Assembly (NCBI GenBank): GCA_944350265.1
Contig: CALVOG010000001.1
Span: 149,470 to 213,469, forward strand
DNA: 64,000 nucleotides
Source of the DNA: an uncultured Clostridia bacterium
Lineage (GTDB): Bacteria; Bacillota; Clostridia; Christensenellales; UBA1242
Direction: 5' to 3'
The translations under genes were made by a program, and so were the position numbers. Positions 12,126-61,867 of the stretch are shown here, piece after piece. How positions within the stretch are numbered: the stretch's first letter is position 1; each line of letters starts with the position of its first letter. Under the pieces are notes generated by a model. That model was given only the letters and a program-made list of their open reading frames with translations. It did no database searches and had not been told where the DNA came from.

Positions 12126-12216
12126 AAAAATCCTCTTTAAAAATTTGTAGGTGACGCTGTTAAACTCTAAATGCTTGTTGCACAAGATATGGCTAAACAC
12201 GCGACATATCAATGTT

Positions 12217-12690
12217 ACCTAGCGTGCAGTATTGCCTCTACCGCTAGGACTGCCACCCTGTTTGTCATTCTGAGCGAAGCGAAGAATGGATGTAGGTGAC
12301 GCTGTCACATTCTAAGGTTTCGCGTGTTAGACGGTGTCGCTTAAACCGAAGGCTAGTTACTCTATCACCGCCCGCGAACGTCTAATCCATCTTCTTATTG
12401 TCGAAGCGGAAGAATGGACGTAGGTGACGCTGTCACATTCTAAGGTTTCGCGTGTTAGGCTGTGTCGCTTAACCAAAAACAATGCAGTTTAATGTCATTC
12501 TGAGCGAAGCGAAGAATCTCGTCGTAGCACCAGCCCGTGTATGTCTAATCTATCCTCTTTTTTTGTTGGCAAATTACAGCCAAACTTTAAACACTCATCT
12601 CATCCAAGCGCGCCTTTTTCAATGTATGTCTAATCCATCCTCTTTTCCCCAGCCAAACACGGCTTATATGTGCCAACAATCCCACACGCT
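12217..12690. repeat. mosaic intergenic repeat cluster L2 (W-X-Y-Z-X'-Y-X-Z chain)
   Basis: X at 12262-12295, Y (gtgacgctgtcacattctaaggtttcgcgtgttag...) at 12296-12365, Z at 12366-12390, partial X at 12399-12423, second Y at 12424, full X at 12492-12527, long Z at 12528-12615, and an extra Z fragment to 12667. Confidence 0.9.
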
Positions 12691-12947
12691 TATGTTTATA
12701 TATAATAACTTACATATATACATACATTAATATTATATCCCCCAAATCGAAAAAAATCAAACAAATCAATCGGTTTAATAAAAATTCCGTCATAGTTTTC
12801 TTATTTCTTCTTTCAAAATAATTTGAACTGAAGTAAAAATAGGAAAACAAAAAAATAATTTGAACTGTAAAATGAAATAAGAGTGAAGAGAGAAAAAAGA
12901 AAAAATAAGAGAACCAAAAAAATAATTCGAAGAACGAATTATTTTTT

Positions 12948-13075
12948 TGGTGCGGGCGGTGGGGGTCGCTCCGCGGATAGTAAGGCTTCGCTGGCTGTTC
13001 CGCTATCACGCCGGGGCGGGCGAACGCAAACACAGTTGCCTTCGCTACTCCGCCCGTTCGACCCGCTTACAAACT
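12948..13075 (-). repeat. tRNA-Leu 3'-end-derived 128-nt unit U1
   Basis: The first 21 nt (tggtgcgggcggtgggggtcg) are identical to tRNA-Leu positions 56-76 including ACCA. The remaining 107 nt are GC-rich and hairpin-forming. A hairpin terminator lies at 12916-12948. Confidence 0.85.
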
Positions 13076-13387
13076 TTAATAAAAAATAAAAAGTAAAAAA
13101 TAAGAGAACAAAAAAATAATTTGAAATTCAACCACACTCTTACATCGCTCTCCTTGTAAGAGAGTAGCGACCTACTCGCCAACGAAGTGCGAGTTGCGTT
13201 TGGTCGCTAAAAGAAAAAACAAGCGAAAAGGCGATGCAACGGAAGAAACGGCTCTTCATTTCAACTTTTGCCTTACGTCAAAAGTCTTACCATTCGTTTG
13301 TTTCTTCCTTATTCCAAAAAATGCGTAAAGCATTTTTCGGAGACCTAAACGCTTGTTCGAAAACGAGCAAAAGTGCAGTTTTTTCTT

Positions 13388-13515
13388 TGGTGCGGGCGGT
13401 GGGGGTCGCTCCGCGGATAGTTGGGCTTCGCTGGTGGTTCCGCTATCACGCCGGGGCGGGCGAACGCAAACACAGTTGCCTTCGCTACTCCGCCCGTTCG
13501 ACCCGCTTACAAACT
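13388..13515 (-). repeat. tRNA-Leu 3'-end-derived 128-nt unit U2
   Basis: Differs from U1 at 4 positions only (gtAAggc vs gtTGggc, ggCTgtt vs ggTGgtt). Lies 440 bp from U1 in the same orientation as the tRNA. Confidence 0.85.
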
Positions 13516-13516
13516 T

Positions 13517-13550
13517 AAATAAAAAAAGAAAGTTCCTCTTTTCAACTTTC
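13517..13550 (-). terminator. terminator of tRNA-Leu
   Basis: On the minus strand: GAAAGTT-gaaaagagg-AACTTTC followed by TTTTTTTATTT, starting 7 nt after the tRNA CCA end. Confidence 0.55.
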
Positions 13551-13556
13551 TTCGTT

Positions 13557-13638
13557 TGGTGCGGGCGGTGGGGGTCGAACCCACACTCTTTCGAACATGC
13601 CCCTTAAACATGCGCGTCTGCCATTCCGCCACGCCCGC
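13557..13638 (-). tRNA. tRNA-Leu, anticodon reads AAG (82 nt, CCA encoded)
   Basis: Hand fold. Acceptor GCGGGCG/CGCCCGC. Leu-type D arm GCGGAATGGCAGACGC. Anticodon stem CATGT/GCATG with loop TTAAGGG. Variable arm TTC-GAAA-GAG-T. T arm GTGGG-TTCGACC-CCCAC. Ends in ACCA. Confidence 0.85.
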
Positions 13639-13657
13639 ACAACATATTTGCTTTTCT

Positions 13658-13686
13658 ATTATATTAATTCCTACGAAAAAAGTCAA
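13658..13686 (-). promoter_or_regulatory. sigma-A promoter of tRNA-Leu
   Basis: Minus strand TTGACT, 17-nt spacer, TATAAT. The -10 ends about 20 nt upstream of the mature 5' end. Confidence 0.6.
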
Positions 13687-14320
13687 CAATTTTTGATAAA
13701 ATTATTAAATATTTTTGCGCAAAGTATAATTTTGCGTGGCTATGCGCGCTTGCATTATTAGAGAAGTTTGAATTTTTTAAAAGGAAAAAGCCCTGCCAAT
13801 TTATAGTATCTACATACGCAATAAAAAATGTGCATTAATAGAAGCGCGAATTTACGGAAATTAGCCCGACTTTTGAACGGTTTGAACAAAAGGCTCACGC
13901 TCCGTTTACAAAATGCACCAGTGATAAAGCACCTGCCTTATCAGCCATATGATATCACATCAATAAAGGCATAGTCAAGTAACGAAAACTTTTTTAGGAA
14001 TTTGCTAATTCTTTATTCACTAAAACGCGCCACCAACTCTAGTCTGTTTATAAACCAATAATAAAGTTCCACAAAAAAGATTTTTGCTTATTTTGTTAAA
14101 CTTTATTAACCTAAAACAATCTTCCTCTTTAAAATAAGAACATTCATCGGTAGATTGACTTTATGTTTCGAGATATTTGTAAATAAAAAAGCCTCGCCTA
14201 TGCCAGCGACAATTAATCATTAAACCAATCAACAATCTATTAAACGCCACAAAAGGATGGTAAATAATTATATAGAAAAATTATGACGTCACCGCGCCAT
14301 TAAATATTAAAGAAGATTTT

Positions 14321-14704
14321 TTACTTCTTGCTTTTCTTCTTATTTTTTTTGTTTGCCTCTTCAACAAGGTTATAATATTCGTCAAAAACCTTAACCGCAG
14401 TTGCCTCGTCCTGTTCTGGCACCAAAACTGTTGGACGCTTTGTTTCATCAGCAAGGAAAACGATGGCTTGGTCGTCCTCAACGCCCTCAAGTTTGTCGAT
14501 AGGCTTAAGAATCACATAGATTTTTTCGTTGTAAGGGATAACCGCAACCTGCTCAAAGCGGATTTGCCTCCCCTCCTCGTTTTGAAGAACAAGGTCCTCA
14601 TTGTTGTTTTCGTCCAAGATGACATCCAAGATGTCGAAATCGCTGAGTTCTTGTTCAACCTCGTTGGAGATTTCCTCCACCTTTTGCATTTTTTTCTTAT
14701 CCAT
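14321..14704 (-). CDS. DUF1292 (UPF0473) family protein
   Basis: Acidic 127-aa protein with the core RFEQVAVIPYNEKIYVILKP...DDQAIVF. It follows ruvX, as in Firmicutes yrrK-yrzB synteny. Confidence 0.75.
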   Translation of the reverse strand: MDKKKMQKVEEISNEVEQELSDFDILDVILDENNNEDLVLQNEEGRQIRFEQVAVIPYNEKIYVILKPIDKLEGVEDDQAIVFLADETKRPTVLVPEQDEATAVKVFDEYYNLVEEANKKNKKKSKK

Positions 14705-17954: not shown

Positions 17955-18173
17955 AAATTCTCCTTTTGTGATAAAAAAATGGTTTTTTATCAGTTTTTTT
18001 ATAAAAATAACAACATTTTTTTGCAAAATTAATGTTTTTTTAAATCGTTTGTTTTTTTATTATTCGCCAACATCGCTTAAAAACCACTTGTTGCGAACTA
18101 TGAAAAAAAGCAAAAATTATGCCTAGATAGTTAAAAATGAGTGGCAAGTCTAATTTAAAACATTGCGCTTATC

Positions 18174-18467
18174 TTACTTAAACAAGTCAAAAATTTGATT
18201 AGGGCAGGCAAGCACAATGATATAGATAAGAATAACAAAAATAAGAATGATGAAGAACGCAACTTTTAGTGGACTGCCTGCAAAATTGACGAGCGCAAAA
18301 GTGAAGATGATTGCCACCCCGCCAAAGCTGACAATAAAATTAAAGACGCCCTGAAAGCCACCCATATCAGGCGCCCAACCTGCTTTTTGAATGAACACAT
18401 TGACAATCAAAAAGCCGATATAAATTATGGCGCAGATTGACAAAATTGTGTAAGCAATTTTTTTCAT
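18174..18467 (-). CDS. small membrane protein (97 aa, 3 TM)
   Basis: GGAGGTGG RBS. Three hydrophobic helices. No family recognised. Confidence 0.5.
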   Translation of the reverse strand: MKKIAYTILSICAIIYIGFLIVNVFIQKAGWAPDMGGFQGVFNFIVSFGGVAIIFTFALVNFAGSPLKVAFFIILIFVILIYIIVLACPNQIFDLFK

Positions 18468-19150
18468 ACCACCTCCTATTGCGATATAATAACACGACTT
18501 TTAAAACATTAGACCTAAATTAAGTTTTATTAGAAATAGCAGGTAAATTATGATTTAGTTATAGTTAATAAAATTTGATTAGTGATGTGAGTAATCCATC
18601 TTAGAATGATTCAAGAGCTGTCAACAGTTTCAAACAAACCTAGTAGATTTTGTAGGAACCGCCGTGAGGAATTATAAATCAGCATTTGTGGTTATTAAAA
18701 AGCATTTTGAATTGCTATGTTACATTCCTATGTTATTATGTTTGTCATTAATATAATATACTATTTTATTAACTAAGAATAGTCTAGCACAAACAACAAA
18801 TCATTTTCAAGTAAATCAATCAATAATTTTTGAAACATTCTTAGACATCGCTATCATTTTGCGAATGATTAAATTTCAGGCGGATAAAATTAAAGCGTTT
18901 AAAGCGCGATTAAAATATATTTCATAACCGATTTTAAGCGAACGAAAACTTTAGCCTTAAGAAAAAATAAGCCGAACGCCGTCGTTTTAAATATTCATAT
19001 TTATGTATAAATATTCACTCTCTTAAATCAATTTTTAAATCTTATTGATTTTAATAAAAAATTTTTAAAAATAAAAAACGTATTTTTAGGTTTGTTTTTT
19101 AATTATTTTTTAAAATAAATTGATTTTTTAATTAATTTTGTATCTAGTTT

Positions 19151-19190
19151 ATAAAATAAAAAATAGTCAGCAAGTTTTTTCCTGCCGACT
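19151..19190 (-). terminator. rho-independent terminator ending the phage-like operon
   Basis: Minus strand AGTCGGCAGG-aaaaaa-CTTGCTGACT (two G:U pairs) followed by a T-run, about 57 nt after the holin stop. Confidence 0.6.
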
Positions 19191-19246
19191 ATTTTTATTT
19201 TTTAATGTATATTTATGCATAAACTTTTTTAATTATACCACCATTA

Positions 19247-19834
19247 TTAATTGTCTTTATCGACCAATGTTTTATTATCCATATCATCTTGCGCATAGGA
19301 TTCTAAGCCGTCTTGCGAATTGCTGGAAGTTCTTTCGTTGTCCAAGCGTTTTTCAGCTTTTAACTTTTCCTCTTTCAAGTTTTCATTGCTCAAATTTTTA
19401 TCGTCAAAATTTGTATCATTCAAGTTTGCATTCAAGCTTTCATCTTCCAGGTTTGCCACATTCAAGTTTTTGTTGTTTGAGCCCTTATCTTCCAAATTTT
19501 CATTGCCCAGACTTTTATCATCCAAATTTGTATCATTTAAGTTATTATCGTTCAAACCAATGTCTAATTTGTTAATGTTCAAACTTTTATCTTCCAAGTT
19601 TTTATTTTCAAAGTTTTCATCATTCTCGTTTGAAGTGGCGCTGTTTTTGGTTTCTTTTGTTATAAAGCCCAAAACCACCAAAAGCCCCGCTATCGACATT
19701 ACAACATCCTCAACAATCTTATTGTCAATTTGAAAGTTAAAAATCTTGCCAATACAATTAATGAAAAGAACAAGGGCGCCAGAAAACGAAATCCAAAAAC
19801 TGTAACTTTTCATCCGCTCAAACAACTTCTTCAT
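19247..19834 (-). CDS. phage holin (Phage_holin_1/phi LC3-like N-terminus) fused to an NLxDx pentapeptide-like repeat tail
   Basis: The segment KSYSFWISFSGALVLFINCIGKIFNF...VMSIAGLLVVLGFI resembles LC3-type holins. About 20 five-residue NL(N/E/D)D(K/T/E) repeats follow. Start set to MKKLFERM (19834), which overlaps the upstream stop. Confidence 0.6.
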   Translation of the reverse strand: MKKLFERMKSYSFWISFSGALVLFINCIGKIFNFQIDNKIVEDVVMSIAGLLVVLGFITKETKNSATSNENDENFENKNLEDKSLNINKLDIGLNDNNLNDTNLDDKSLGNENLEDKGSNNKNLNVANLEDESLNANLNDTNFDDKNLSNENLKEEKLKAEKRLDNERTSSNSQDGLESYAQDDMDNKTLVDKDN

Positions 19835-20054
19835 CCTCAGCCTCATCACATCTAAGAAATTCTTTTATTTCACAAACCTCCTCCTTCACCTCTTTTAGAA
19901 TGTTTAAATTTTCGGTTAAATTTTCAATCGTTTCAATGTATTGCGCCTCTCGCCGTGAAGAGTCTTTAAGTTGATAGAGAAACAACCACACGAACAAAAT
20001 TGCAAACACGCCATTACTTATCACTATGCTTACTATCTCTTTCCAAAGTTCCAT
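19818..20054 (-). CDS. BhlA/UviB family holin-like protein
   Basis: One N-terminal TM segment (IVSIVISNGVFAILFVWLFLY) then a charged coiled tail (SSRREAQYIETIENLTENLNILKEVKEEV), typical of the BhlA family. 78 aa. Confidence 0.6.
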   Translation of the reverse strand: MELWKEIVSIVISNGVFAILFVWLFLYQLKDSSRREAQYIETIENLTENLNILKEVKEEVCEIKEFLRCDEAEDEEVV

Positions 20055-20151
20055 TTGCCACCTTCTAAAATTTGTTTTACCATAACACCATCTCCTTTTT
20101 TTAACAAAAAATCTTTCTTTTGAAATTTAAGATAGCATTTGTAAATCAATC

Positions 20152-21657
20152 TCACGAAATCACATCGAACACAATCATCGGTTTTGAAATATGGCAGTTT
20201 GCTTCATTTGTTTTAAAAACGAATTGAAAATTTTTGCCGTTAACAGAAACGCTCTTTCTTTCTTCCTTTTCGCTTCCGTCAAAGGAATAGGTTTTCGTTT
20301 CGACATCGCTGACAACCTCCACCTCGCACGCATACCTACTATTTAAGATTATCTCCTTAACCTTTTTATTCTTTCCTTTATATCCTAAGTCCGTGACAAA
20401 AGAACGCCAACTTTTTTCGGTGGAAATATCGAAGATTTTGCCACTACGCGTAAGTTCGCCAATCTTGCCAACATTCGCACCATTGAAGCACGCCACAACT
20501 TTGCTAAAATAAGGCGTGTCGACGGCGATAATTTTGTTGATATCCACCCCGCGCAAAACATCCACCTTGCCTGTTTCGATATCCACCTCAAAAAGCGCAT
20601 TGTTTTTAAAAGAGGACGCCTCGCATCCAACATCCTCGCCATCGCCAAAGTCGCATTTCGTTGCCAAATAATACTTCCCGTCCAAACAGCAAGCGGACGC
20701 ATTTTGGTTATCTAAGTTTTTGAAAAAGTGGTCATATTCCTCACAAATTTTCTTCACACTTGTGCCGTTAAACGAATACAGCCCCTCTCTGGTCACAAAA
20801 TAGATAACCTCGCCACAAACGCAAATGGATTTTTCGTAAATTTTCGAAGTGGAAAGATAGAGGTGCGTGAAAGAAAACTCGCCCTTTGTGGTATACGCCG
20901 AAATTTTGGTTATGCCGTTCTCGCGGAAGAGGTAAACATAGTCGTTGAACACCGCAAGTTTAGTGAACGCGCCCATCGAATCTAAGAACTCAATCACACT
21001 ACCCACATCGTCCGTCCACTCTCTCACGTCCAAATTTTGGTGATAGATAAGCTCGTTGCGATTGGTGTTCGTTATGCCAAACGCCATACCATAATGCACA
21101 ACAAGCGAAAGTAGTGGCGGAACATCAGCAAATCTTTGCGTTGTGTAGGCGCTCGAAAAGATAAGCCCATTAGAATCGAAAAATAAGAGACAATCATACT
21201 CGCCAATTCGATACGGAATGGTGGCGAGAATATTTTGAAAAAGAAGGCTGGACTTCGACAACGGCTCGCCATCAGCAACATCGATAAGAAGTAGGGTCCA
21301 AATTTGGTCGCGCTGGTCCTTAATCACCAAGTGGTAGTAATAGCAGTCGTCGTCGATATCCAAATACCTAAAATAGTCAATCGACCTAACCTCGGTTATC
21401 GTTTTTGAGGAAAGGTCGAAGGGATGCACATTTTCTAAGTCATCCTCGCTTGCTGGCACATTTAGAACTTTAAACCCAAGCCCCGTTTTAAGCGCGCCGT
21501 CAAGTGGTGAAAAATTATAAAAAGTTTTGCATTCGTTCGGCTTAGAGATTAAGTCGTCCTCATTAGAGACCACCCCTTCGCCAAAAACTGAAAAAGTGAT
21601 GTTTTTTTCCACAGTCTTTTTGTGCTTTTTAAGGTTTTTATAAAAAATCAAAACCAT
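20152..21657 (-). CDS. phage structural protein, beta-propeller-like (501 aa); sits where a podovirus tail hub/nozzle would be
   Basis: Start overlaps the upstream stop by 10 nt. Repeated YxF / YYLA / GLYSFNG strand-like motifs. No family recognised, so the role is inferred from gene order only. Confidence 0.3.
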   Translation of the reverse strand: MVLIFYKNLKKHKKTVEKNITFSVFGEGVVSNEDDLISKPNECKTFYNFSPLDGALKTGLGFKVLNVPASEDDLENVHPFDLSSKTITEVRSIDYFRYLDIDDDCYYYHLVIKDQRDQIWTLLLIDVADGEPLSKSSLLFQNILATIPYRIGEYDCLLFFDSNGLIFSSAYTTQRFADVPPLLSLVVHYGMAFGITNTNRNELIYHQNLDVREWTDDVGSVIEFLDSMGAFTKLAVFNDYVYLFRENGITKISAYTTKGEFSFTHLYLSTSKIYEKSICVCGEVIYFVTREGLYSFNGTSVKKICEEYDHFFKNLDNQNASACCLDGKYYLATKCDFGDGEDVGCEASSFKNNALFEVDIETGKVDVLRGVDINKIIAVDTPYFSKVVACFNGANVGKIGELTRSGKIFDISTEKSWRSFVTDLGYKGKNKKVKEIILNSRYACEVEVVSDVETKTYSFDGSEKEERKSVSVNGKNFQFVFKTNEANCHISKPMIVFDVIS

Positions 21658-22205
21658 CTCCGTTTAGGAAGGCGCAACTCGCTTTTCTTACGTGCAAGCA
21701 CGAACAAACTTTCCTTGAAGCGCTCCTCAAAGATTTCCGCGTCCTCGCCCAAGCCATCAAAAAGAAGATACTCGCTCGCCATTCCGTAGGCATAAATTCT
21801 TGCCGACAGCCCGCAGTTTAGTTCCACAGTGTCGCTAAGCGCAAGGTCGCCCGGCAAAAAGGAATAGGTGATTTTTTTAGCGTGACCGAACACCTCGATG
21901 TAGTTTGGATACGCCTTATATCGCACATTTTGCCCAAAACTTCCCTTAAGCGCAAAGATATTTATGACCTTTTTCGTCAAATTTGAATAGTTTAATATGG
22001 AATTTTTAACATCTATATTTTCAGTATGTAAAAAAGGGAGATAGTCAGATGCTATCTCTTGGTTGACAAGATTAAAACACCTGACTAATGTGTTCACCCG
22101 CTCATTCTCCCCGTCAGTCAAAGAATCGTTATTCTCCAACTTTGATGCGAGTTCCTTTTCGCCTATAAATAAGGCGGTGTAAATCACCAAATCTTTAACA
22201 ATCAT
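21648..22205 (-). CDS. phage structural protein (185 aa); sits where a head-tail adaptor would be
   Basis: Start set to MIVKDLV (22205), which has a GGAGG RBS and overlaps the stop of the 106-aa gene. The role is inferred from gene order. Confidence 0.3.
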   Translation of the reverse strand: MIVKDLVIYTALFIGEKELASKLENNDSLTDGENERVNTLVRCFNLVNQEIASDYLPFLHTENIDVKNSILNYSNLTKKVINIFALKGSFGQNVRYKAYPNYIEVFGHAKKITYSFLPGDLALSDTVELNCGLSARIYAYGMASEYLLFDGLGEDAEIFEERFKESLFVLARKKSELRLPKRRWF

Positions 22206-22515
22206 ACAATCTTGCCTCCGCTTCATTCAAAATTCGGTGACTCTTAACTTTAAGATTCCTCGCGTTTTCCTCTTCAATTTCCTTGAATAACTCATCCCTC
22301 TTCTCGCTCAGCGTTTTCTTAGTTAGAAAGAGCGTGCGCTCGTCGAGAGAGTCGAAGGGCAAAGTGAGGCAAAAGGTGTTATACTTCTGCGCTCTATTAT
22401 GAAGTTCGAAAACTTTACGCTCAATATTATAAACAACGAAGTAATCCTTATCGATTTCTTTTAGTCTTTTAACGATATCTAAGCAATCACTGTCAATTTC
22501 AAATGAATTTTTCAT
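22195..22515 (-). CDS. hypothetical phage-module protein (106 aa)
   Basis: Intact ORF, co-oriented and translationally coupled to the next gene. No family recognised. Confidence 0.4.
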   Translation of the reverse strand: MKNSFEIDSDCLDIVKRLKEIDKDYFVVYNIERKVFELHNRAQKYNTFCLTLPFDSLDERTLFLTKKTLSEKRDELFKEIEEENARNLKVKSHRILNEAEARLYDC

Positions 22516-22772
22516 ATTTTTTCCTTTTATTTAGTTAAGTTCGGCTAATTAAATTAGTTTTTGTGGTTAATGTTGGTAAATCTTATTAAAACTGCATCTT
22601 AGATAGGTTATTCAGTATTAAACTTACTTTTAGGTTACTATTATTAAGTTCTTCCTTTTCTAGTTTTGCTTTTTCCTGCTACTACTATGTTGCTCACTTT
22701 TATGTTTCATAAGGATAACCTTTCTTAAAGAAGCGCATTTTAATAAGAGCTTAATAGTTTTTTTCTATATAA

Positions 22773-23990
22773 TTAGGCGTCACTACCACTAGAGTCGTCG
22801 CTTGGTGGAGTCAAAGTTTTGGCGATTTGCATAATCTTACCCTGTCCGCAAGGTCTTTCGCAAAGAAGTTCGCAGTATTTAACAAGCGTTGCAGTGTAAG
22901 TTGCATATCCAGGATTTTGTCGCAAAATTCTGCCCGACTCATCTTCAAGCCACTTCCAATCACAAAGTTGATACATTGTGAAATCGTTGGTGTTAAGAAG
23001 ATACATAACACCTGACTTAACGTGCTTTTCGCCAACCACAGGAATACCGTTATAGGTTATCGTCTTATATCCACCCGCAAGTTCTGCAATGTCAACGTTA
23101 CGTCGATAAGCCGAAAGGTATTCTTGGTAAACCCTTTTCGTTCCAACGTCAGTTGCGATGTAGTTAATTCGTGAGCCAGATGTCATTTCCACGGCATCGA
23201 TACCTTCTTGGATAAGCGTGTCGCTGATGTAAACCTTTCCGCTATTCCTTTTGTATGGATTAAGCCACTTGTAGTCAGTCTTATTGAGCCCATAATAGGA
23301 ATTGATAGAGAAAAGCGCCTCAATACCCGTGATTTCCTTATCCTTGGAGTTTGGAATGTATGCCTTAGTGCCAGCGCCGATTTTATAAGATGAGAAGTTC
23401 GCTTTATCAAGGTAAACCTTTGCGTTCGCCTTGTCAACATACTCAACCATATACACCCCAGCGGCATCGCTGAATGTGCCGTCGTAACCGCGAAGTATTA
23501 ACGGCATTCCTTCAACCACATTGCCTGGAATATCCACAACCAAACTCTTTTCGCTTTCGTTTATCTCAGTTACTGAGAAAACTTCGCCTGAACCCATACC
23601 GTAAATCATTCTGCCAAGATTGAAGTTTCCTGCCTCAATAAGGCGTTGCATTTCGTCGTTTAAAAGGTTGACAAAGCTTGTGATGTTGTTGGAAGTCGCT
23701 CTAATTGCCTTGTCGGAAATTTCCAACTGTCCGTAAAGATTTTTAAGTTCCGCAACAAATTGAACATATTTTGTCGAACGCGGGTCTGGTAATTTACCAT
23801 CCTCAGCACCCGCAGCAAATCCGCCATTGATACCAACTGGCGCTGCCTTTCGAATTTCTTTGCCATAGATGTTGCTTGTGGAATGTTTAATCATTGAAAG
23901 AAGTGGGTTTGCCACCAAATTAAGTTGATTGGAAATAACGCCCAAATAGACATTTTTTAAGGCGTTTTCCGCACTTTGTAATGTTACCAT
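22773..23990 (-). CDS. phage major capsid protein (HK97-fold family)
   Basis: 405 aa, directly after the scaffold gene. Contains the capsid-family pattern KYVQFVAELKNLYGQLEISDKAIRATS...LLNDEMQRLIEAGNFNLGRMIYGMGSGE. Confidence 0.7.
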   Translation of the reverse strand: MVTLQSAENALKNVYLGVISNQLNLVANPLLSMIKHSTSNIYGKEIRKAAPVGINGGFAAGAEDGKLPDPRSTKYVQFVAELKNLYGQLEISDKAIRATSNNITSFVNLLNDEMQRLIEAGNFNLGRMIYGMGSGEVFSVTEINESEKSLVVDIPGNVVEGMPLILRGYDGTFSDAAGVYMVEYVDKANAKVYLDKANFSSYKIGAGTKAYIPNSKDKEITGIEALFSINSYYGLNKTDYKWLNPYKRNSGKVYISDTLIQEGIDAVEMTSGSRINYIATDVGTKRVYQEYLSAYRRNVDIAELAGGYKTITYNGIPVVGEKHVKSGVMYLLNTNDFTMYQLCDWKWLEDESGRILRQNPGYATYTATLVKYCELLCERPCGQGKIMQIAKTLTPPSDDSSGSDA

Positions 23991-24005
23991 TTTTTGCTCC
24001 TTTTG

Positions 24006-24719
24006 TTAGGAAAGTAAGTCAAAAAGAAAATTTTTCGCTTCCTCTAAGGTCGAAGGTTTTTGAGTGGCAACTTCTGCCACCCTGTTCCCCTTCGCCGATA
24101 TGATGATTGGTGACTTATTTTCCGCTAATTGATTTACATAGTTTTCAATCACTGCATTTTTGAGGTCATCATTGCTCAAAATGTAGTTTTTGACAGCCTC
24201 GTCACTTTTGTTGCCACGAATTTGGTTGAACACCATCTCCGCCCAAGCAAAAGAGAACGGGTCGTCCATTTTTTTTAGACTATCATCGTTTTTGACTTTT
24301 TCTTTGAGTTCTTCGCTATATTTTGTTGCCTCGCCGTTCGATAAGAGGAACTTTGAAAGTTTTTCGTCCAATTTTTCTTCATTTTCCTTATCTTCCAAAG
24401 CCTTGTCTCTTTCTAAGGCGGATAGTCTTTGGCACTTTTTTGTGAACTCTTTTTCGAGGTTGTTATATGCCTCCAAAAGCGCTTCCGCGTCCTTAAACTT
24501 ACCAACCGCATCCCGCGCTTCGGTTTTTAGTTTTTCCTCGTTTACCGCATCCCGCGCTTCGGTTTTTGCCTCTTCCTCGTTTTGGGAGTCCGCCGATTGT
24601 TCTTGTGCGCTTGGTGCGCTTTCCACCTCACTCACCAAATCAACATTCTTAGGCGATGCGCCATCCTCGTCGTCCAAGGTTAAATCTTCGAATTGTTCCC
24701 AATATTTTTCGTCGTCCAT
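24006..24719 (-). CDS. phage scaffolding protein
   Basis: Acidic, coiled-coil, 237 aa, between portal and capsid. DUF4355-like EALLEAYNNLEKEFTKK segment. Confidence 0.6.
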   Translation of the reverse strand: MDDEKYWEQFEDLTLDDEDGASPKNVDLVSEVESAPSAQEQSADSQNEEEAKTEARDAVNEEKLKTEARDAVGKFKDAEALLEAYNNLEKEFTKKCQRLSALERDKALEDKENEEKLDEKLSKFLLSNGEATKYSEELKEKVKNDDSLKKMDDPFSFAWAEMVFNQIRGNKSDEAVKNYILSNDDLKNAVIENYVNQLAENKSPIIISAKGNRVAEVATQKPSTLEEAKNFLFDLLS

Positions 24720-24720
24720 C

Positions 24721-26556
24721 TTATTCTCCTTCTTTTAAAAGTTTTTTGTGAGCCATAATATGCTCCAAAAAGTTATTTTCAATCTCGCTGGTTGCGTTCT
24801 TTTCGTATTCGCCAGAAAGCATAAACGCAATATGCTCATCGATGTGAAGTTTGTTATCGTCAATCACTTTAACATCCACCTTTTCGCCGTCTAACAGTGC
24901 AAGGTTTTCGTTGTCCGCCCGACGAGTGTGAAGAGCCTGCAAGTTTTTGGCGCTCTCCCAATTACCAAAGCCCAAAATTTCCAAAATCTTCCCTTTAACG
25001 CTTTCAGTTAACTTGCCGTTCTCGTCATAGAGAATGCCCTTATCTAAGAGCGTATAAATCATATTTCGCCTTTGCGTTAAGGTTTCAGCGCCGTCACTTT
25101 CGGTTTCAAACTGAACGTCGTCACTTGAAATATCGCTCGACTTAAAGTAAAAAATCTCTGGCGAACCATTGTCTCCAACAATTTTAAGTAGACGCGGAAT
25201 GTTGGCAAACTGCTTATACAGCCTTAAAATTTGCTTACCAATACTTTTAATCGCACTCTTTATGCTGTCGGTTGTGAAGGAAAGCCGAGTTTGGTTTTCG
25301 TCTAAAAGTAATTCAAGTGCCACACCGCTCACCGACGCTGAAATGGTGGTTAAATCGCCCATTTCCGACATTCCGCACAAAGTGGTAAATTCCTCCAAAA
25401 GTTTTTCCTCTTCCTTTTCAAATGCGGTTGGCAAATTTTCGTTTGCAAGGTATTTTGGCGCGTCCGCACCTTGGCGATACACCAAAATTTTCCCAGGCGC
25501 TAAACCTTCATCCTCCAAATTTTCCACATCCACACTGCCATCCTCAACCGCCAAAACTCCCAAAGTGAGCCTATTAAGAAATTCGTGCTTGCGATTTTTA
25601 ACCGCGTTATATGCCCGTTGAAGAGGTATCATTCTTTCAATCAAACTTCTTCCCCAAAACGAGCCAACCTCGTCACAACAAACCTGCTTCACAAATGGGA
25701 AATCTCGCTTGCCGTCGATGCCGTTGACGTATGGCAATTCACCGTCAAAAACAAGCTCGTCGCCTGCAACGATGATAAGCCGTCCATTCGGCGCGTCCTC
25801 ACTTGGACGGATGTATTTTTCGATAACGAGGTTCGCATCCCTCTTCACGCTCGCATTAAGTTTGGTGCCAATGCCGTTATATCCAAGCCCGCCTGTTGAA
25901 TACGAGGCGTCGAGCGAGAACACGTTGATGTCCTTCCCTTCCACACTCACGCCATACATCTTTTCAATCTCTTTGGCGGAGTAGACTTTCGCGTGAATTA
26001 CGCTTTGGCAGTCCTCCAAACTTTCCGCCGTGACGCTATCGGGGTAGATTTCAAACGGCGAGCAAACGGCAATGTCCACATCGCCCGCTTTAATCTTCCG
26101 TCCGCTGTCCTCAATCGCCACAACCTGCCCTAGGTTTGGGTTCCAAAGCACCTTATAGAAGCAAGTTCCGCAAAGTTCGCTCCACTTTGTGGCTTGGTTA
26201 ATCTTCTTGGAAAGGCTATGCTTTGCCGACACCGAATCCAAAATTTTTTTGGAAAGTTTTGCCGTGTAAACATCCTTTTCATCGTTCGTCGCTGGCACAA
26301 CGTAAAGTTTCGGTCTTATCGCTGAAAGTTTGGAAAGGCGTAAATCAACCTTTGGTGCGATATGGTTGAAAACCTCTCGCTCTTGCCAAAAATACTGCCT
26401 GTCCATATCCTCCACAATACCACCAAAACCAATCGTCGAAAATTGGTTGCCCATATAGAAGTCCATATTCAACTTCCACTGCGTTTCAAACGGTTTTCGC
26501 TCGATTGCGCGACGCTCAAAATCTTCTAAAACCTCTTTAACCAAATCACTTTTCAT
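24721..26556 (-). CDS. phage portal protein
   Basis: About 611 aa, in the position upstream of scaffold and capsid, with a portal-like N-terminal segment (QWKLNMDFYMGNQF). Start set to MKSDLVKEV (26556), which has a GGAGG RBS. Confidence 0.7.
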   Translation of the reverse strand: MKSDLVKEVLEDFERRAIERKPFETQWKLNMDFYMGNQFSTIGFGGIVEDMDRQYFWQEREVFNHIAPKVDLRLSKLSAIRPKLYVVPATNDEKDVYTAKLSKKILDSVSAKHSLSKKINQATKWSELCGTCFYKVLWNPNLGQVVAIEDSGRKIKAGDVDIAVCSPFEIYPDSVTAESLEDCQSVIHAKVYSAKEIEKMYGVSVEGKDINVFSLDASYSTGGLGYNGIGTKLNASVKRDANLVIEKYIRPSEDAPNGRLIIVAGDELVFDGELPYVNGIDGKRDFPFVKQVCCDEVGSFWGRSLIERMIPLQRAYNAVKNRKHEFLNRLTLGVLAVEDGSVDVENLEDEGLAPGKILVYRQGADAPKYLANENLPTAFEKEEEKLLEEFTTLCGMSEMGDLTTISASVSGVALELLLDENQTRLSFTTDSIKSAIKSIGKQILRLYKQFANIPRLLKIVGDNGSPEIFYFKSSDISSDDVQFETESDGAETLTQRRNMIYTLLDKGILYDENGKLTESVKGKILEILGFGNWESAKNLQALHTRRADNENLALLDGEKVDVKVIDDNKLHIDEHIAFMLSGEYEKNATSEIENNFLEHIMAHKKLLKEGE

Positions 26557-26773
26557 TTTTCCTCCTTGATATCGCTCTGTTGGGTTTAAAGTGCGACTCC
26601 ACTGCCTTTGGCACGAAAAGTTTGGCAAGTTCTTCATAGAGCGATTTCAAACACTCTTCGCAAAACGCAAACTCGTTTCGAATAAACCCGCGAGTTGAGA
26701 TGTAATATTTTGCAAGGTGTCGACAACCACTTGAATCGCACTTAACAATATGGCGACATTTTTCAACTTTCAC
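26546..26773 (-). CDS. small Cys-rich (zinc-finger-like) protein, 75 aa
   Basis: Cys residues at positions 6, 12, 17, 38 and 41 (CRHIVKCDSSGC ... CEEC). It occupies the slot where a large terminase is expected and overlaps both neighbours. Confidence 0.45.
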   Translation of the reverse strand: MKVEKCRHIVKCDSSGCRHLAKYYISTRGFIRNEFAFCEECLKSLYEELAKLFVPKAVESHFKPNRAISRRKNEK

Positions 26774-27038
26774 TTTTTTCCTCCTTTAATAATTTCAAAA
26801 GTCGCTTTTTCTCTTTTTTAAGTTCGGTAAGAGTCATATGTGAAAGTTCGTCGTCAAAAACGCCCTCCTTTTCCATTAAAATCTTAACGGCGCTGATATC
26901 TGGCGGGTTATATTTCTTCGTCACCTTGCGCCTATTTAAAACTTCGTTGCCGTCTTTGTCGAGTGTGTATTCTTCCACCACCTCGTCGCTGGAAAAGCCG
27001 AGTGCCTTTTTTAAAAGTGCCTTTCTTATCTCCTCCAC
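26763..27038 (-). CDS. small terminase-like / phage DNA-packaging accessory protein (91 aa, GTG start)
   Basis: GGAGG then 4 nt then GTG. The segment KALGFSSDEVVEEYTLDKDGNEV..RKVTKKYNPPDISAVKILME resembles the C-terminal part of Firmicutes phage TerS proteins (pattern ...K.V.PD..A.IFWLKNR). Confidence 0.35.
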   Translation of the reverse strand: MEEIRKALLKKALGFSSDEVVEEYTLDKDGNEVLNRRKVTKKYNPPDISAVKILMEKEGVFDDELSHMTLTELKKEKKRLLKLLKEEKSES

Positions 27039-55886: not shown

Positions 55887-56575
55887 GGTGACACTGTCAC
55901 TTTTTGTGGTGTCGCGTGCTAGGCAGTGTCGCTTATACCAAAGGCAGGGCAGTTATTTGTCATTCTGAGCGTAGCGAAGAATCTCGTCGTAGCACCAGCC
56001 CGCGAACGTCTAATAATTCCTCTTAAGAAACACTTGCTTAAGAAACACTTGCCACGCAATACCATTTCTACCGCTAGGACTGTCAGCCTATTTGTCATTT
56101 TGTGCGGAGCGAAGAATGGTCGTAGGTGACGCTGTCACATTCTAAGGTGTCGCGTGCTAGGCAGTGTCACTTATACCGAAGGCAAGGCAGTTATTTGTCA
56201 TTCTGAGGCAACGCCGAAGAATCTCGTCGTAGCACCAGCCCGCGAACGTCTAATAATTCCTCATAAAAAATGCTTAGCGTTTACTTTACACTAAGCGTTG
56301 TATTTTAAAATTTTAAGCACTTGCTTTTAATATCTATTCGTCAAAGTGGTAATTTTAGAGTTTTGTAAGCCGTTATACGACGAGATTCTTCGCTGGCGTC
56401 GCCTTGCTTCTTGCTCAGAATGACATTTAACGATATCGCTTTGTGGTTTAGGTTATTTTGCAAACATACTATATCATCCATCACCAAGCCCGCGGACGTC
56501 TAATCTTTCCTATTTTTATTTGCAAAACGCGACTAAGCCACATATCAATCATCCAAGTGCGCTTGGTCCTCGTCA
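55887..56575. repeat. mosaic intergenic repeat cluster L9, the largest (Y-X-Z, W-X-Y-X-Z, B-rev, long Z)
   Basis: X cores at 55958, 56096 and 56197 (forward), B-rev at 56341-56440, long Z at 56475-56567 whose end box overlaps the recombinase stop region. Confidence 0.9.
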
Positions 56576-57603
56576 TAAATTCGCACTTTTTTTGCCACAT
56601 TGCGCCTTAAATCGTCGCTTATCGCTGCATAGTGCTTCTTGGTTGTGTTGACGTCCTTATGCCCCAAAATATCCGCAACGATATAGATATCGTTAGTTTC
56701 TCGGTAAAGATTCGTGCCGAAAGTGGAGCGCAATTTATGTGGTGTGATTTTTTTCAGTGGTGTGCTTTCATAGGCAAACTTTCGCACAATATTTTCCACC
56801 GCGCGCGTGCAAATGCGCCTGTTTTGAAGCGACAAAAACATCGCCTTTTCGTTTTCGCCGATAGGCAAAGTTTCGCGCAGTGAAAGCCACTCCATAAGCG
56901 CATATTTAACGTCGTTTGGATAATATAAAATGGTTTGATTTCCGCCCTTTCTTGTCACCTTGAAAGCGTTTTGCTGAAAGTCGAAATCTTCCACATTAAG
57001 CCCCACAAGTTCGCTGACACGTATGCCCGTGCCAAGGAAAAGCGTGACGATGGCGTTGTCGCGCACCTTCGTGTTTTTGTTGTAATTTCGCTGGCGTGCG
57101 GAAAAGGTCGATGGCTCCCAAACCGCGTCTAAAAGTTTTTCCACCTCGTCGCCCTCAAGCCTAACAATACCCTTTGTGTGGAGTTTTGGCGTTGGCACCT
57201 TGCTGACCACATTTTTGGAAATAAGGTCGTGGTTAAAGAGGTAGCGGAAAAAACTGCGAATGCTGGCGAGTTTGCGCGCCTTGCCGTTTTCGGTGTTGCG
57301 AAAAACCTTGTCGCCCACCGTGTAGTAACTTAAATACGAGAGGTAACTTTCAATATGACGCGCCTCCAAACTGTCAAGGTCTTTAAGCGTTATGTTCGCC
57401 TTGTCCTTATTTAAAACATAGCGCGAAATATAGTCATAAAAAATCGACAGGTCCATCGCATAATTTAATCGCGTAAGCGAAGAAGTTGAAAGTTCCATAC
57501 CCGTGAAAAAATCATAGCAATATTCGGGCAAATCGGCAAGATAGGAGCCGATTTTTTGCATATTATCCAAATCTCTTTTCTCAAAATACGACAGCGTTTT
57601 CAT
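56545..57603 (-). CDS. tyrosine-type site-specific recombinase (XerC/XerD/phage integrase family)
   Basis: Catalytic residues in GTGIRVSELVGL (R), TPHKLRSTFGT (HxxR) and LGHKDVNTTKKHYA (H..Y). SAM-like N-terminal domain. Start set to MKTLSYFEK (57603). Confidence 0.8.
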   Translation of the reverse strand: MKTLSYFEKRDLDNMQKIGSYLADLPEYCYDFFTGMELSTSSLTRLNYAMDLSIFYDYISRYVLNKDKANITLKDLDSLEARHIESYLSYLSYYTVGDKVFRNTENGKARKLASIRSFFRYLFNHDLISKNVVSKVPTPKLHTKGIVRLEGDEVEKLLDAVWEPSTFSARQRNYNKNTKVRDNAIVTLFLGTGIRVSELVGLNVEDFDFQQNAFKVTRKGGNQTILYYPNDVKYALMEWLSLRETLPIGENEKAMFLSLQNRRICTRAVENIVRKFAYESTPLKKITPHKLRSTFGTNLYRETNDIYIVADILGHKDVNTTKKHYAAISDDLRRNVAKKVRIYDEDQAHLDD

Positions 57604-57687
57604 ACAATAATTATACCAACATCGCCAAAAAAAGTAAAACAAATTTAGCGCAAAAAGCGTTTAACTGCGATTAAGTGCCATCCGCTC

Positions 57688-58020
57688 AAAGTGGTAATGT
57701 TTGAGTTTGTGTAAGTGAGTTCTACGACGAGATTCTTCGCTAGCGTCACTACCGCTCCTTGCTCAGAATGACATTTAACGGTATCGCCTTACGGTATGCA
57801 CACTGCGTCGTTTTTGATGTTGTGTATTCTTCTATAGCTTAACGCGCAGTAACACCTATACCGCAAAGACTATCACGCTATTTGTCATTCTGAGGCGAAG
57901 CCGAAGAATCTCGTCGTAGGTGACACTGTCACTTTTTGTCGTTTCGCGTGCTAAACATTATTGCTTACATCAAGAAAAACCACAATATCATCACCCGCGT
58001 ATGTCAAATTATTCCTCTTT
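57688..58020. repeat. mosaic intergenic repeat cluster L10 (B-rev, Y-like, W, X, Y, Z)
   Basis: B-rev at 57688-57780, X at 57884-57919 (core ggcgaagcc), Y hairpin GTGACactGTCAC at 57920, Z remnant cacccgcgtatgtcaaattattcc. Confidence 0.9.
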
Positions 58021-58085
58021 AGAAAAAAGCAACAAAACGCGCAAGGGTTAAATCATTTTTAAACTAGCGTAATAAAAAAGAAAAA

Positions 58086-58118
58086 GAGTTCTACTTTTTA
58101 GCGGTAAAACTCTTTTTT
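58086..58118. terminator. terminator-like hairpin, second copy of the 7335 hairpin
   Basis: GAGTTcTAC-tttttagcg-GTAaAACTC followed by TTTTTT. One-base difference from 7336-7369. Confidence 0.5.
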
Positions 58119-58503
58119 AATTAGTTTGAAAATTTATAAACAAGATTGCAAACTTTTGAAACTAGCAGAAAATTTAGAATTTTGCCAAAGTGACAAAATC
58201 CTTTTTTTATTTAGCATGCATACTAATATGTTTACTATATTTTCTAAATATTATAGTCATGTTATCATATAGAGAATAAGAAAAAATCAATTTACGCTGA
58301 CTATTATATTTTATTTATGTTATAATTAGATTATAAAATTTTATTTAAATGTTAGAGATTTATTATGAAAAGTTTCAACTATGTAGAATGTTTATATAAA
58401 AACAGGAGAAATTTAAAAAGACTAAAATAAAGACAAAATAGAACTAAAAAAGGAAATTTGTAAATTTTGGAGTATATGTATATTATCTTTGCTTGGAGGT
58501 TTT

Positions 58504-58980
58504 ATGCGAATAAAAGACAATCTTAATAATAAGAAAATTAAATATGAATATGTGTCAAAAAAAGGTTATGGATTTGAATTAGATAATCCAATTCAAGTTG
58601 CAAAAGTAAATGATATATATTGGCTTTTAAAAAATATATATTTGAAAAATTCTTGCGGGAAAATCATTGATTATGACAGACGTTCAATGAAAAGTTCGTT
58701 ATATAGGGGTTTGGTAGACAATTTTGAAGTTTTGTTTGAAATTAAAAATGGAAGTGAATTAGAATATAAATTATATGATTTATTTTTTTGCGCATATCCC
58801 AAACTTGAAGATGAAAGAACAGAGACTGGATACATATTAGAAAATTTTAATAAAGGTATTGAAATTCCAAATGAGTTTCAGTTAATAGATAAACAAATAA
58901 TAAATGGACAAAACAAAATAAATTGTAAACTATATATTTTTTTTAATTTTGATTTATTTAACTATGCCTCAACATTATAG
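58504..58980 (+). CDS. hypothetical cytoplasmic protein (158 aa) in low-GC island
   Basis: GGAGG RBS, then 3 nt, then ATG at 58504. Its 3' end overlaps the convergent lipoprotein gene by 19 nt. No family recognised. Confidence 0.45.
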   Translation: MRIKDNLNNKKIKYEYVSKKGYGFELDNPIQVAKVNDIYWLLKNIYLKNSCGKIIDYDRRSMKSSLYRGLVDNFEVLFEIKNGSELEYKLYDLFFCAYPKLEDERTETGYILENFNKGIEIPNEFQLIDKQIINGQNKINCKLYIFFNFDLFNYASTL

Positions 58981-61160: not shown

Positions 61161-61403
61161 AAAAAACTCCTTATCTCAATTTATGCAAACATGAACACAT
61201 CTGCATTTGACAATTTCAGTATAAACAATTTGAAATAAAGTTGTCAAACAATTTTCTAAAAAAATATTTTTTTGTTTTTTTAGTTAAAAAAAATTTAACA
61301 ATTTTATTTTCTTCTAATTTATGAAAATTATAGTAAAAATTTAAAGTTTTATACCTTTTTTTGCAAAAAAAATGGATTTTACATCATTTTATAGACTATT
61401 TTT

Positions 61404-61440
61404 TGTAAAAAGAGGTTTGAAAATTTCAAACCTCTTTTAT
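61404..61440. terminator. terminator after the Big_2 protein gene
   Basis: AGAGGTTTGAAA/TTTCAAACCTCT perfect palindromic hairpin flanked by A- and T-runs. Confidence 0.6.
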
Positions 61441-61467
61441 TACTATTTTAAAATATTTATAGGAAAA

Positions 61468-61866: not shown

Positions 61867-61867
61867 A

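Follow-up and report, generated by a model that had tools for sequence, protein, structure and literature searches.

Miniature non-coding modules behind leucine tRNA genes of uncultured Clostridia

The array behind tRNA-Leu(AAG)

We analysed a 64-kb stretch of DNA from an uncultured Clostridia bacterium (hereafter, the window), in which the only tRNA gene is a tRNA-Leu(AAG) on the minus strand (called by ARAGORN and scored at 47.7 bits by the Rfam tRNA model). Behind it, on the same strand, lie two near-identical units, U1 and U2, each of which has the tRNA 3' end copied at its own end. These units belong to a previously undescribed family of non-coding modules of ~150 bases, which stand behind leucine tRNA genes only and occur in a few uncultured gut-type Clostridia. 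[quoted passage not shown]

Read along the tRNA strand, the array runs tRNA-b-U2-21nt-c-U1-21nt-a, in which b and c are flanks, a is a palindrome and 21nt is the tRNA-derived end of each unit (Table 1). A gapless alignment bears out the four differences between U1 and U2 given in a preliminary description of this DNA and places all of them in one loop (AG/CA and TT/CA); the full repeat spans ~153 nt (12939-13091 and 13379-13531) at 94% identity. The same description had both units end in the last 21 nt of the tRNA, and the identity is indeed 21/21. The GGGCGG..CCGCCC hairpin that it listed is also present: these 42 nt of the core (GGGCGG-AGTA-GCGAA-G-GCAA-CTGTGT-TTGC-G-TTCGC-CCGCCC) occur exactly twice in the 64 kb, against 0 expected.

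U1 is followed by palindrome a, which had rightly been read as a perfect hairpin terminator: 17 bp pair perfectly, take in the ACCA of the unit and are followed by a T-run, and this is the sole terminator-like call of our scan. The right arm of the palindrome has four copies on the minus strand within 12814-13125, with about one expected in 64 kb. Of the hairpin and T-run that had been placed downstream of U2, the hairpin exists ~50-70 nt past the unit (AAAAATGC-TTTAC-GCATTTTT), but it is AT-rich and is not called by the terminator scan.

Table 1. Features of the tRNA-Leu array in the window, and recombinase genes at two related loci (contig named with the feature)
Feature	Position	Strand	Remarks
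Promoter-like site TTGACT-17-TATAAT	13658..13686	-	Upstream of the tRNA; sole strong promoter match on this strand ahead of the array
tRNA-Leu(AAG)	13557..13638	-	Acceptor GCGGGCG/CGCCCGC; T-arm GTGGG-TTCGACC-CCCAC; CCA encoded
Flank b, AACGAAGAAAGTTGAAAAGAGGAACTTTC + T-run	13516..13556	-	Hairpin; begins directly after CCA
U2 5' arm, GCGGGTCG	13499..13506	-	Reverse complement, as GGGTCG(+AAC), to tRNA positions 53-61
U2 invariant core, 59 nt	13440..13498	-	AAC, hairpin, linker CGGCGTGATA, GCGG
U2 variable loop, 23 nt	13417..13439	-	Contains all 4 U1/U2 differences
U2 CCGCGGAG	13409..13416	-	Invariant; closes the loop via CCGC; last part of the non-tRNA sequence
U2 tRNA-derived 21 nt, CGACCCCCACCGCCCGCACCA	13388..13408	-	tRNA positions 56-76
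Flank c	13142..13387	-	Third module type, with long hairpins; begins directly after CCA
AAGAGTGTGGTT	13130..13141	-	12-nt relic of tRNA variable arm/T-stem up to T55
Palindrome-a right-arm copy (GAATTTCAAATTATTTTTTTG..) + AT-rich leader	13076..13129	-	Ahead of U1
U1	12948..13075	-	5' arm 13059-13066, core 13000-13058, loop 12977-12999
U1 3' part	12948..12976	-	CCGCGGAG 12969-12976; tRNA-derived 21 nt 12948-12968
Palindrome a, ACCAAAAAAATAATTCG-TTCTT-CGAATTATTTTTTTGGT + T-run	12913..12951	-	Terminator form
Two more palindrome-a right-arm half-copies (TTCAAATTATTTT)	12814..12864	-	
Large serine recombinase gene, L017	13066..14661	+	Overlaps tRNA-Leu(CAG), 14555-14640 (-)
Large serine recombinase gene, L022	5650..7176	-	At the tRNA-Leu 3' end

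A family behind six leucine tRNA genes

Related metagenome contigs and metagenome-assembled genomes (MAGs) from Christensenella-like Clostridia yielded thirteen more copies, full or truncated, numbered L001, L015 (two copies), L016, L017, L019 (two copies), L020 and L022-L028. The translations of the three open frames of the unit, concatenated and searched against a protein collection, returned 11 clusters of short, domain-less open reading frames (ORFs); the contigs that carry these spurious ORFs gave L015-L017 and L023-L028. A 23-mer from the invariant core, scanned against the GTDB representatives and the JGI metagenomes, gave L018-L022. An earlier DNA pattern, ACGGGCGGANTAGCGAAGGCAAC, had no match in either collection because it was too strict, other copies reading GGAAAAGCG. 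Contigs reached through the neighbouring RuvX and DUF1292 genes mostly stop inside the tRNA; L001, whose flanks are 97.6% identical to those of the window, spans the locus. The named MAGs among the carriers are labelled 'uncultured Catabacter sp.' (= Christensenella) and 'uncultured Clostridia bacterium'.

Without exception, the copies share the strand of a tRNA-Leu gene, whole or in a partial copy, and lie downstream of it. Six different tRNA-Leu genes carry units: two with anticodon AAG (acceptor GCGGGCG in the window, L019 and L001/L023; GCGAGTG in L020), two with CAA (GCTGGTG in L016, L022 and L025; GCAGGTG in L024, L026 and L027), one with CAG (L015, L017) and one with TAA (L028). The tRNA-Cys gene beside tRNA-Leu(TAA) in L028 is without a unit. 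We distinguish three deep families among the copies, of which the W type comprises those of the window, L016, L019, L022-L024 and L026-L028; the others are the L015/L017 type and the L020 type.

A unit closes with 21 nt that repeat positions 56-76 of the tRNA to which it belongs, in all copies except three: L015b and L019b, distal or truncated copies that are 1-2 positions off, and L023, the end of which is recombinant. These ends thus differ from gene to gene, reading CGACCCCCACCGCCCGCACCA behind the AAG gene of the window type, CAAGTCCCACCACTCGCACCA behind that of the L020 type, CGACCCCCACCACCAGCACCA and CGACCCCCTCCACCTGCACCA behind the CAA genes with acceptors GCTGGTG and GCAGGTG, respectively, CGACTCCCATCATCGGCACCA behind TAA and CAACTCCCATCTCCTGCACCA behind CAG. 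The boundary is constant: identity starts at C56 in all 15 copies, the unit reading ..GCGGAG|C where the tRNA reads ..GGGTT|C. This is as expected of the right-hand attachment site (attR) of an integrated element, namely a direct copy of the 3' part of the tRNA that starts in a loop and lies downstream of an intact gene.

Between families, the 59-nt core is identical at 57-59 of 59 positions (97-100%) and CCGCGGAG at 8 of 8, against ~50% for flank b, 6 of 15 positions for the 5' arm and ~40% for the 23-nt loop closed by GCGG/CCGC, which is unrelated in sequence among the three families and differs in length between them (23 versus 24 nt). Over 12 copies, 3 of the 59 core columns vary. Flank b, (A)CGAAGAAAGTTGAAAAG.. 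with a hairpin and T-run, starts right after CCA and precedes every full unit; it is homologous across all full-unit loci, and its stem is maintained by compensatory and G.U changes. As far as sequence comparison can tell, a near-invariant core beside diverged flanks, with a 5' arm that co-varies with the T-loop (below), points to purifying selection. The GATAG..CTATC stem of the preliminary description is not part of what is conserved: several copies have CTAAC, two families are unrelated here, and the constant feature is GCGG..CCGC round the 23-nt loop.

The units are open in three frames, and gene callers make 'hypothetical proteins' of 82-185 amino acids of them (in the window, 13234-13518 (+), 13353-13607 (+) and 12710-13033 (-)). 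We rejected a 32-codon ORF in the unit that begins with GTG, because every codon position of the core is invariant and the loop is 23 nt long in one family and 24 nt in another.

For 12 units, RNAalifold proposed a closing helix, P1, in which the 6-8 nt 5' of the core pair with the first 6-8 nt of the tRNA-derived end: GGGTCG with CGACCC in the W family, GGAGTTG with CAACTCC in the L015 family and GGGACTTG with CAAGTCCC in the L020 family. Read together with the invariant AAC that follows, the 5' arm matches tRNA positions 53-61/63 exactly as their reverse complement. In our alignment A3, three of the six P1 pairs change on both sides, in two independent lineages; two G.U pairs in P1 are standard on the tRNA strand only, and slid controls collapse. 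The remaining 19 pairs, hairpins 1 and 2 included, show no variation and are hence uninformative on covariation. The arm of each deep family pairs best with its own end, and W-type copies behind CAA and TAA tRNAs are unadapted. In a second register, which is the minimum free energy (MFE) fold of the W and L024 units, the 5' end of the arm (GCGGG, GCA.. or GCGGGGAG) takes the acceptor 3' strand as its partner, and ACCA stays free.

Two earlier statements about folding have to be revised. ACGGGCG, thought to pair with the acceptor strand, is part of the invariant hairpin and does not track the acceptor elsewhere; the segment related to the tRNA-derived end is GCGGGTCG, just upstream of it (13066-13059 and 13506-13499). 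The non-tRNA part had been said to fold well; the folding energy of a single unit is not unusual against shuffled sequence (z of about -0.8 to -1.3). The case that one strand, as RNA or as single-stranded DNA, has been selected to fold is, on these comparisons, real but thin. A pseudo-tRNA with its interior replaced was also considered, since GCG or GCA at the 5' end of the unit and GGCGGAA in the core resemble the 5' end and D-arm of tRNA-Leu, but this resemblance concerns a very short stretch.

A tRNA, tmRNA or other tRNA-like structure was rejected: ARAGORN calls the real tRNA only, and the 5' strand of the T-stem is absent from the unit (GCGGAG replaces GTGGGTT). Rfam has no match for the unit (even at E<=10), for six related loci, for flank c or for the anticodon-type module described below. 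Of the tRNA-mimicking small RNA or tRNA-targeting miniature element put forward earlier, the tRNA-Leu-specific element is supported, with units at six genes, whereas mimicry in that sense is not, there being no T-arm, no ARAGORN or Rfam call, and no conservation of the ACGGGCG-acceptor pairing or of the GATAG stem.

Recombination traces and their interpretation

Related strains differ in what stands behind the tRNA. L001 and L025 have empty sites, composed of the tRNA and the distal flank: palindrome a lies directly behind the intact tRNA, and in the window it follows U1. L001 has a truncated unit (the first ~44 nt kept) elsewhere. One locus varies in copy number, with two units in a perfect 165-nt tandem in L015 and one in L017, and a 5'-truncated form is common to L019 and L025. 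The arrays are of the kind built by accretion, with non-autonomous units, bounded by attachment (att) sites, in tandem at a single integration site.

An exchange that swaps the 3' part of the tRNA predicts hybrid tRNA genes, and L006 (4599-4669, at a contig end) contains one. Over 1300 nt this strain matches the window at 99.6% identity, with three of five mismatches in the last 9 nt, and its tRNA-Leu(AAG) turns to an L020-type T-loop right after C56 (AAGTCCCAC in place of GACCCCCAC). In one further case, L023, the repeats around flank b and the unit are non-identical, with CGCCCGCACCA of AAG type on the left and GCTACCTGCATCA on the right; CGACCCCCACCGCTACCTGCATCA also lies on the right side, and the body is identical to U1 at 119 of 120 positions. 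Such repeats are in keeping with hybrid att sites, and a simple target-site duplication does not account for them. Together, L023 and L006 argue that the element supplies the 3' part of the tRNA, as in classical integration, and that no staggered-cut duplication took place.

The T55 boundary is also met from its other side. Flank c, which recurs in L019 (twice) and L022 and as a variant in L028, ends in AAGAGTGTGG(G)TT, that is, in the variable arm and T-stem of the tRNA up to T55, after which non-tRNA sequence follows; the corresponding relic is AAGAGTGTGGTT in the window and the perfect 13-mer AAGAGTGTGGGTT in L022. In L025, the centre of palindrome a is a rearrangement breakpoint. All breakpoints lie in loops of hairpin-forming sequence (T-loop, anticodon loop, palindrome centre), which is where recombinases that bind inverted half-sites cut. 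Template switching by a reverse transcriptase at tRNA 3' ends was considered since all breakpoints are in hairpin loops; it is unsupported and leaves the co-varying 5' arm unexplained.

Larger rearrangements accompany these junctions. L019 comes from another species, and its flanking genes share 67-78% identity with those of the window; the tRNA/b/unit/c array is far more conserved (91-92%) and is inverted as a block. Seen from the neighbours, L019 ~1000-1960 is inverted, compared with window 12940-13716, relative to the DUF1292 and peptidase genes; the borders of this inversion have no clear inverted repeats. In L028 (1-360), the unit of tRNA-Leu(TAA) is followed by an inverted copy of the tRNA 5' part (TGCCATTCCGCCACATCG) and by a direct copy that runs from the D-loop to the anticodon loop (AATGGCAGACGCACAGGACTTAA) inside a flank-c-like hairpin, and tRNA fragments in both orientations point to repeated rearrangement.

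A second module type occurs in L001 (7632-7797), L023 and L022 (5420-5600), and truncated in L016 (1542-1640). It starts with an inverted copy of the anticodon arm of tRNA-Leu(CAA) (GCGGGATTTTGAGTCCCGC), after which positions ~27-37 are copied directly. An insert of ~110 nt comes next and contains a hairpin and T-run terminator of its own, of which the stem sequence differs between L001 and L022. The module ends in a partial tRNA of 47 nt (positions 40-76, the start at ~40 being just past the anticodon loop), which at the AAG locus is chimeric, with a variable arm of CAA type and an acceptor strand of AAG type. This module may encode a small RNA, or it may be an att junction in the anticodon loop that took a second hit. 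In addition, large serine recombinase elements (Resolvase, Recombinase and Zn_ribbon domains) are inserted exactly at ..GCACCA| in L017 and L022, their attP arms being the inverted repeats CGGTTCGGAT..TCACTT and AAGTGA..ATCCGAACCG. A 12-nt piece of such an arm, ATCCGAACCGAT, is also found in the palindrome behind the unit in L024 and L026. The array of L022 combines a serine recombinase element, an anticodon-type module, a unit and flank c. Because junctions of further types, in the anticodon loop and at ..GCACCA|, occur at these tRNA-Leu genes, we regard the genes as recombination hot spots.

We hypothesize, with a probability of about 0.5, that U1 and U2 are copies of a miniature, non-coding and non-autonomous module of ~150-170 bp that is specific to tRNA-Leu genes and has accreted there by site-specific recombination in the T-loop. 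The module would consist of flank b or another leader and the 107-nt body, and would join the chromosome by a crossover at or just after T55|C56. A crossover at that point would leave the tRNA whole and give the far-side junction tRNA positions 56-76, as in attR. Repeated events, followed by unequal exchange or deletion, would stack and truncate the modules beside those of other types (flank c, palindrome a, the anticodon-loop type). The enzyme would be a putative recombinase acting in trans, and the core with its T-loop-pairing 5' arm would form a folded recognition part, made of single-stranded DNA or RNA, which may be why both are conserved. Transcription from the tRNA promoter probably reads through the array and stops at palindrome a.

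The preliminary description had proposed stacked fossil att sites, and neutral scars of large phages or integrative and conjugative elements (ICEs), once resident in the tRNA-Leu 3' end and later deleted, would carry the classic signature seen here, in which pieces of a tRNA 3' end follow the tRNA downstream in direct orientation. The same tRNA ends do harbour large serine recombinase elements in L017 and L022, and distal copies of the 21-mer gather mutations (L015b, L019b). We nevertheless consider such scars unlikely. The module has the same two ends behind six tRNA-Leu genes, and independent deletions would not stop alike; the core is 97-100% conserved beside flanks at ~50%, and the 5' arm co-varies with the T-loop. 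Nor was a parent found. The 107-nt arm, which the preliminary description had proposed to compare with the ends of known integrative elements, matched none of them: blastn against phage and plasmid records gave only chance matches of 20-34 nt, IMG/VR gave no match, and the matches in GTDB representatives and JGI metagenomes were at miniature-module loci only. What remains of the earlier proposal is the att-like origin (sharp boundary, local match, polymorphism, hybrid tRNA, L023 repeats); the core and the co-varying arm speak against 'fossil'. Under constraint this strong, a scar is an inadequate description, and the module would be a working recombination substrate, a source of RNA or both, which are not exclusive.

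Several observations weigh against accretion of a mobile module. No recombinase gene adjoins any copy examined, and no full-size parent element with this arm turned up in the phage, plasmid, IMG/VR, GTDB and JGI collections. At 150-170 bp the module is too small for easy circularisation, and independent mobility of single modules is doubtful. The arm, GC-rich, hairpin-forming and fully invariant, is unlike classical integrase arm sites. A functional tRNA requires a module with a matching 3' part for each of the six tRNAs, that is, putative specialised variants or repair. The hybrid tRNA of L006 is a single case read at a contig end, with the acceptor 3' strand beyond it, and the data amount to a small set of ~15 copies from the three deep families, chiefly on short metagenome contigs.

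Some of the same evidence would suit the main rival, a putative gene for a small structured RNA of ~120 nt that derives from the tRNA-Leu transcript or starts at a weak promoter within flank b, with the DNA rearrangements secondary; the 5' arm would pair with the tRNA-derived 3' segment to close a helix with a free ACCA tail, and the invariant three-way core would bind a protein. This account, which is compatible with accretion of a module, is possible although not the one that we favour. It would explain the nearly invariant core among diverged neighbours, the 5'/3' pairing with its two-sided changes and its G.U pairs valid on the tRNA strand only, the MFE folds of W and L024 that leave exactly ACCA unpaired, and the best pairing of each of the three deep families with its own end. 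All copies are on the tRNA strand, the sole strong terminator form follows U1 and the sole strong promoter precedes the tRNA, and the changes in the flank b hairpin are G.U-compatible. On the other side, Rfam has no match, hairpins 1 and 2 are invariant and so offer no covariation evidence, single sequences fold no better than shuffles, and W-type copies behind CAA and TAA tRNAs keep an unadapted 5' arm. An RNA gene also leaves unexplained the sharp-edged 21-nt identity to the adjoining tRNA, the truncated copies, the hybrid tRNA and the non-identical repeats of L023.

More speculatively, and with considerable doubt on our part, the module could be programmable: an arm of 9-11 nt on an invariant scaffold of RNA or folded single-stranded DNA would pair with the T-loop of tRNA-Leu (arms GGGTCGAAC, GGAGTTGAAC and GGGACTTGAAC against T-loops GTTCGACCC, GTTCAACTCC and GTTCAAGTCCC) and guide a trans-acting enzyme to insertion or exchange exactly at T55|C56, or else the unit could encode a regulatory RNA that is new, linked to tRNA-Leu and furnished with an ACCA end like that of a tRNA. 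The variable loop does not look like a second guide, its 8-mer matches to the surroundings being at chance level.

We consider it very improbable that the unit is the right end of a guide-RNA transposon of the IS200/IS605 or a similar type, with a scaffold and a 3' guide like the omega-RNA of TnpB, in which the 21 nt would be the guide or flank that targets the tRNA beside a T-rich GGTT. The layout has its parallels: an invariant scaffold of ~100 nt precedes ~21 nt identical to the target, GGTT comes before them in the tRNA and GGAG in the unit, and flank c contains a junction of tRNA..GGGTT with non-tRNA sequence. However, no TnpB-, IscB- or TnpA-like ORF lies beside any copy, the 11 short ORFs returned by the translated-unit search were spurious and without Pfam domains, and simple insertion does not account for the intact tRNA upstream. 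We know of no counterpart among omega-RNAs to a 5' arm that pairs with the 'guide', which also counts against this origin.

MITEs were also considered and rejected. The ends of flank b plus body are not inverted repeats, the sole inverted repeat, of the 5' arm against T-loop bases, takes in tRNA-derived sequence and changes along with the target, and the repeats of L023 are non-identical.

The rest of the window is consistent with a Clostridia chromosome (PolA, RuvX, LigA, MreB, PFOR). Its tyrosine integrase gene (56545-57642 (-)) lies 43 kb from the units, with no tRNA and no tRNA-Leu-like 21-mer nearby; it adjoins a low-GC stretch (58000-64000; 29-32% versus ~40%), with which it probably forms a genomic island that extends past the window. 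Phage-like genes just past polA (18100-27000, with a holin at 19247-19849 and a P22-like portal protein at 24721-26637) are probably a prophage remnant that does not adjoin the tRNA; L001 has a BhlA-type holin at the position matching the window holin. Upstream of the S8 peptidase/LRR gene is a repeat-rich stretch (12146-12520, 12263-12517) with a 64-nt repeat at 128-nt spacing (12281-12344 and 12409-12472), two exact copies, 230 nt apart, of the small hairpin TGTCATTCTGAGCGAAGCGAAGAAT, and three copies of TGTATGTCTAATCYATCCTCTTTT. L001 has similar repeats, the stretch being 84% identical there.

Significance and relation to known systems

Genes for tRNAs are classic landing sites of mobile DNA, and what has been described there so far are kilobase-sized elements and their decaying ends. 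New here is a gene-less module of ~150 bp under strong sequence constraint, confined to leucine tRNA genes and equipped with an arm that co-varies with the T-loop. If recombination is its role, it would be smaller than any integrative unit so far known to target tRNAs and a handle on its recombinase and recognition rules, which may involve a folded strand or base pairing; if guided targeting were true, it would be a nucleic-acid-guided, tRNA-specific miniature mobile element. As an RNA it would represent a new class of tRNA-linked small RNA in Christensenellaceae-like gut bacteria. In practice, metagenome assemblies break off at tRNA-Leu genes because of the repeats, of which gene callers make spurious ORFs.

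Tyrosine integrases that attach in the T-loop of tRNA genes form a class that Williams reportedly termed 'sublocation II' in 2002 (cited in PMC3146451). Their elements restore the tRNA and move the old 3' end to attR. The modules resemble them in the T-loop crossover, in a block of identity from the T-loop to the 3' end and in having a second class at the anticodon loop. They differ in lacking an integrase and an element body, and in that one arm serves six tRNA-Leu genes with different 3' ends.

The attC sites of integrons and the attP(+) site of CTX phage are folded single-strand recombination sites. In the units, too, an inverted copy of the crossover site lies ~100 nt from the direct copy, so one strand can fold into a duplex site, and, like the attC sites of Vibrio (VCRs, Vibrio cholerae repeats), they measure ~120 nt, are nearly identical within a genome and form tandem arrays. 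An integron attC as such was rejected: the 5' arm ..TCGAAC is like an inverse core, but GGAG|CGACC is without TT, so there is no G|TT; the stem has 6-11 bp and is no long imperfect palindrome; and the interior is conserved in sequence, which that of attC is not. No link of the units to IntI or Xer is known, and no intI-like gene was found among the ORFs tested.

A small RNA made from the trailer of a tRNA-Leu transcript, the 3' external transcribed spacer of glyW-cysT-leuZ in Escherichia coli, was reportedly found to be functional by Lalaouna et al. in 2015. L028 has the same Cys-Leu gene order. The units have no relation to that RNA in sequence or structure, and it does not copy the 3' end of the tRNA.

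Casposons of Methanosarcina also target the tRNA-Leu 3' end, with tandem insertions parted by a shared duplicated target (PMC4779613). These archaeal elements are kilobases long and have terminal inverted repeats and Cas1, whereas the units have neither inverted termini nor Cas1. A casposon-type or other staggered-cut duplication was rejected because the repeat is mostly 21-24 nt but 39 nt in L025 and non-identical in L023.

In Streptococcus ICE families, cis-mobilizable elements (CIMEs) are decayed ICEs of several kilobases, bounded by att sites and placed in tandem beside resident elements by site-specific integration (PMC5704250). The modules are likewise non-autonomous and stacked, but ~20-fold smaller, and they share a conserved structured core. 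Their origin as CIMEs, by decay of a known ICE or integrative mobilizable element, was rejected: no parent was found, and identical module ends at six loci do not fit independent decay.

The closest described case is that of the genomic islands specific to ssrA in Dehalococcoides. These form tandem units with a 20-bp repeat that starts midway through the T-loop and a conserved motif upstream of each; some units are without integration genes and have been read as cis-mobilizable elements stacked by accretion; and the gene of a large serine recombinase, DsiB, overlaps the target ssrA at attL (PMC3146451). The likeness lies in tandem units behind a tRNA-like gene, with a conserved motif upstream, and at tRNA-Leu the recombinase ORF of L017 overlaps the tRNA on the opposite strand in the same layout as DsiB and ssrA. 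The Dehalococcoides islands are kilobases long and carry genes, whereas the present modules are non-coding and 150-170 bp long. No recombinase is linked to the units, and the serine recombinase elements at these loci join at ..GCACCA| and not at T55|C56. The conserved arm of the modules, in turn, is 67 nt long, GC-rich and hairpin-forming, and carries an inverted copy of the T-loop that co-varies with it.

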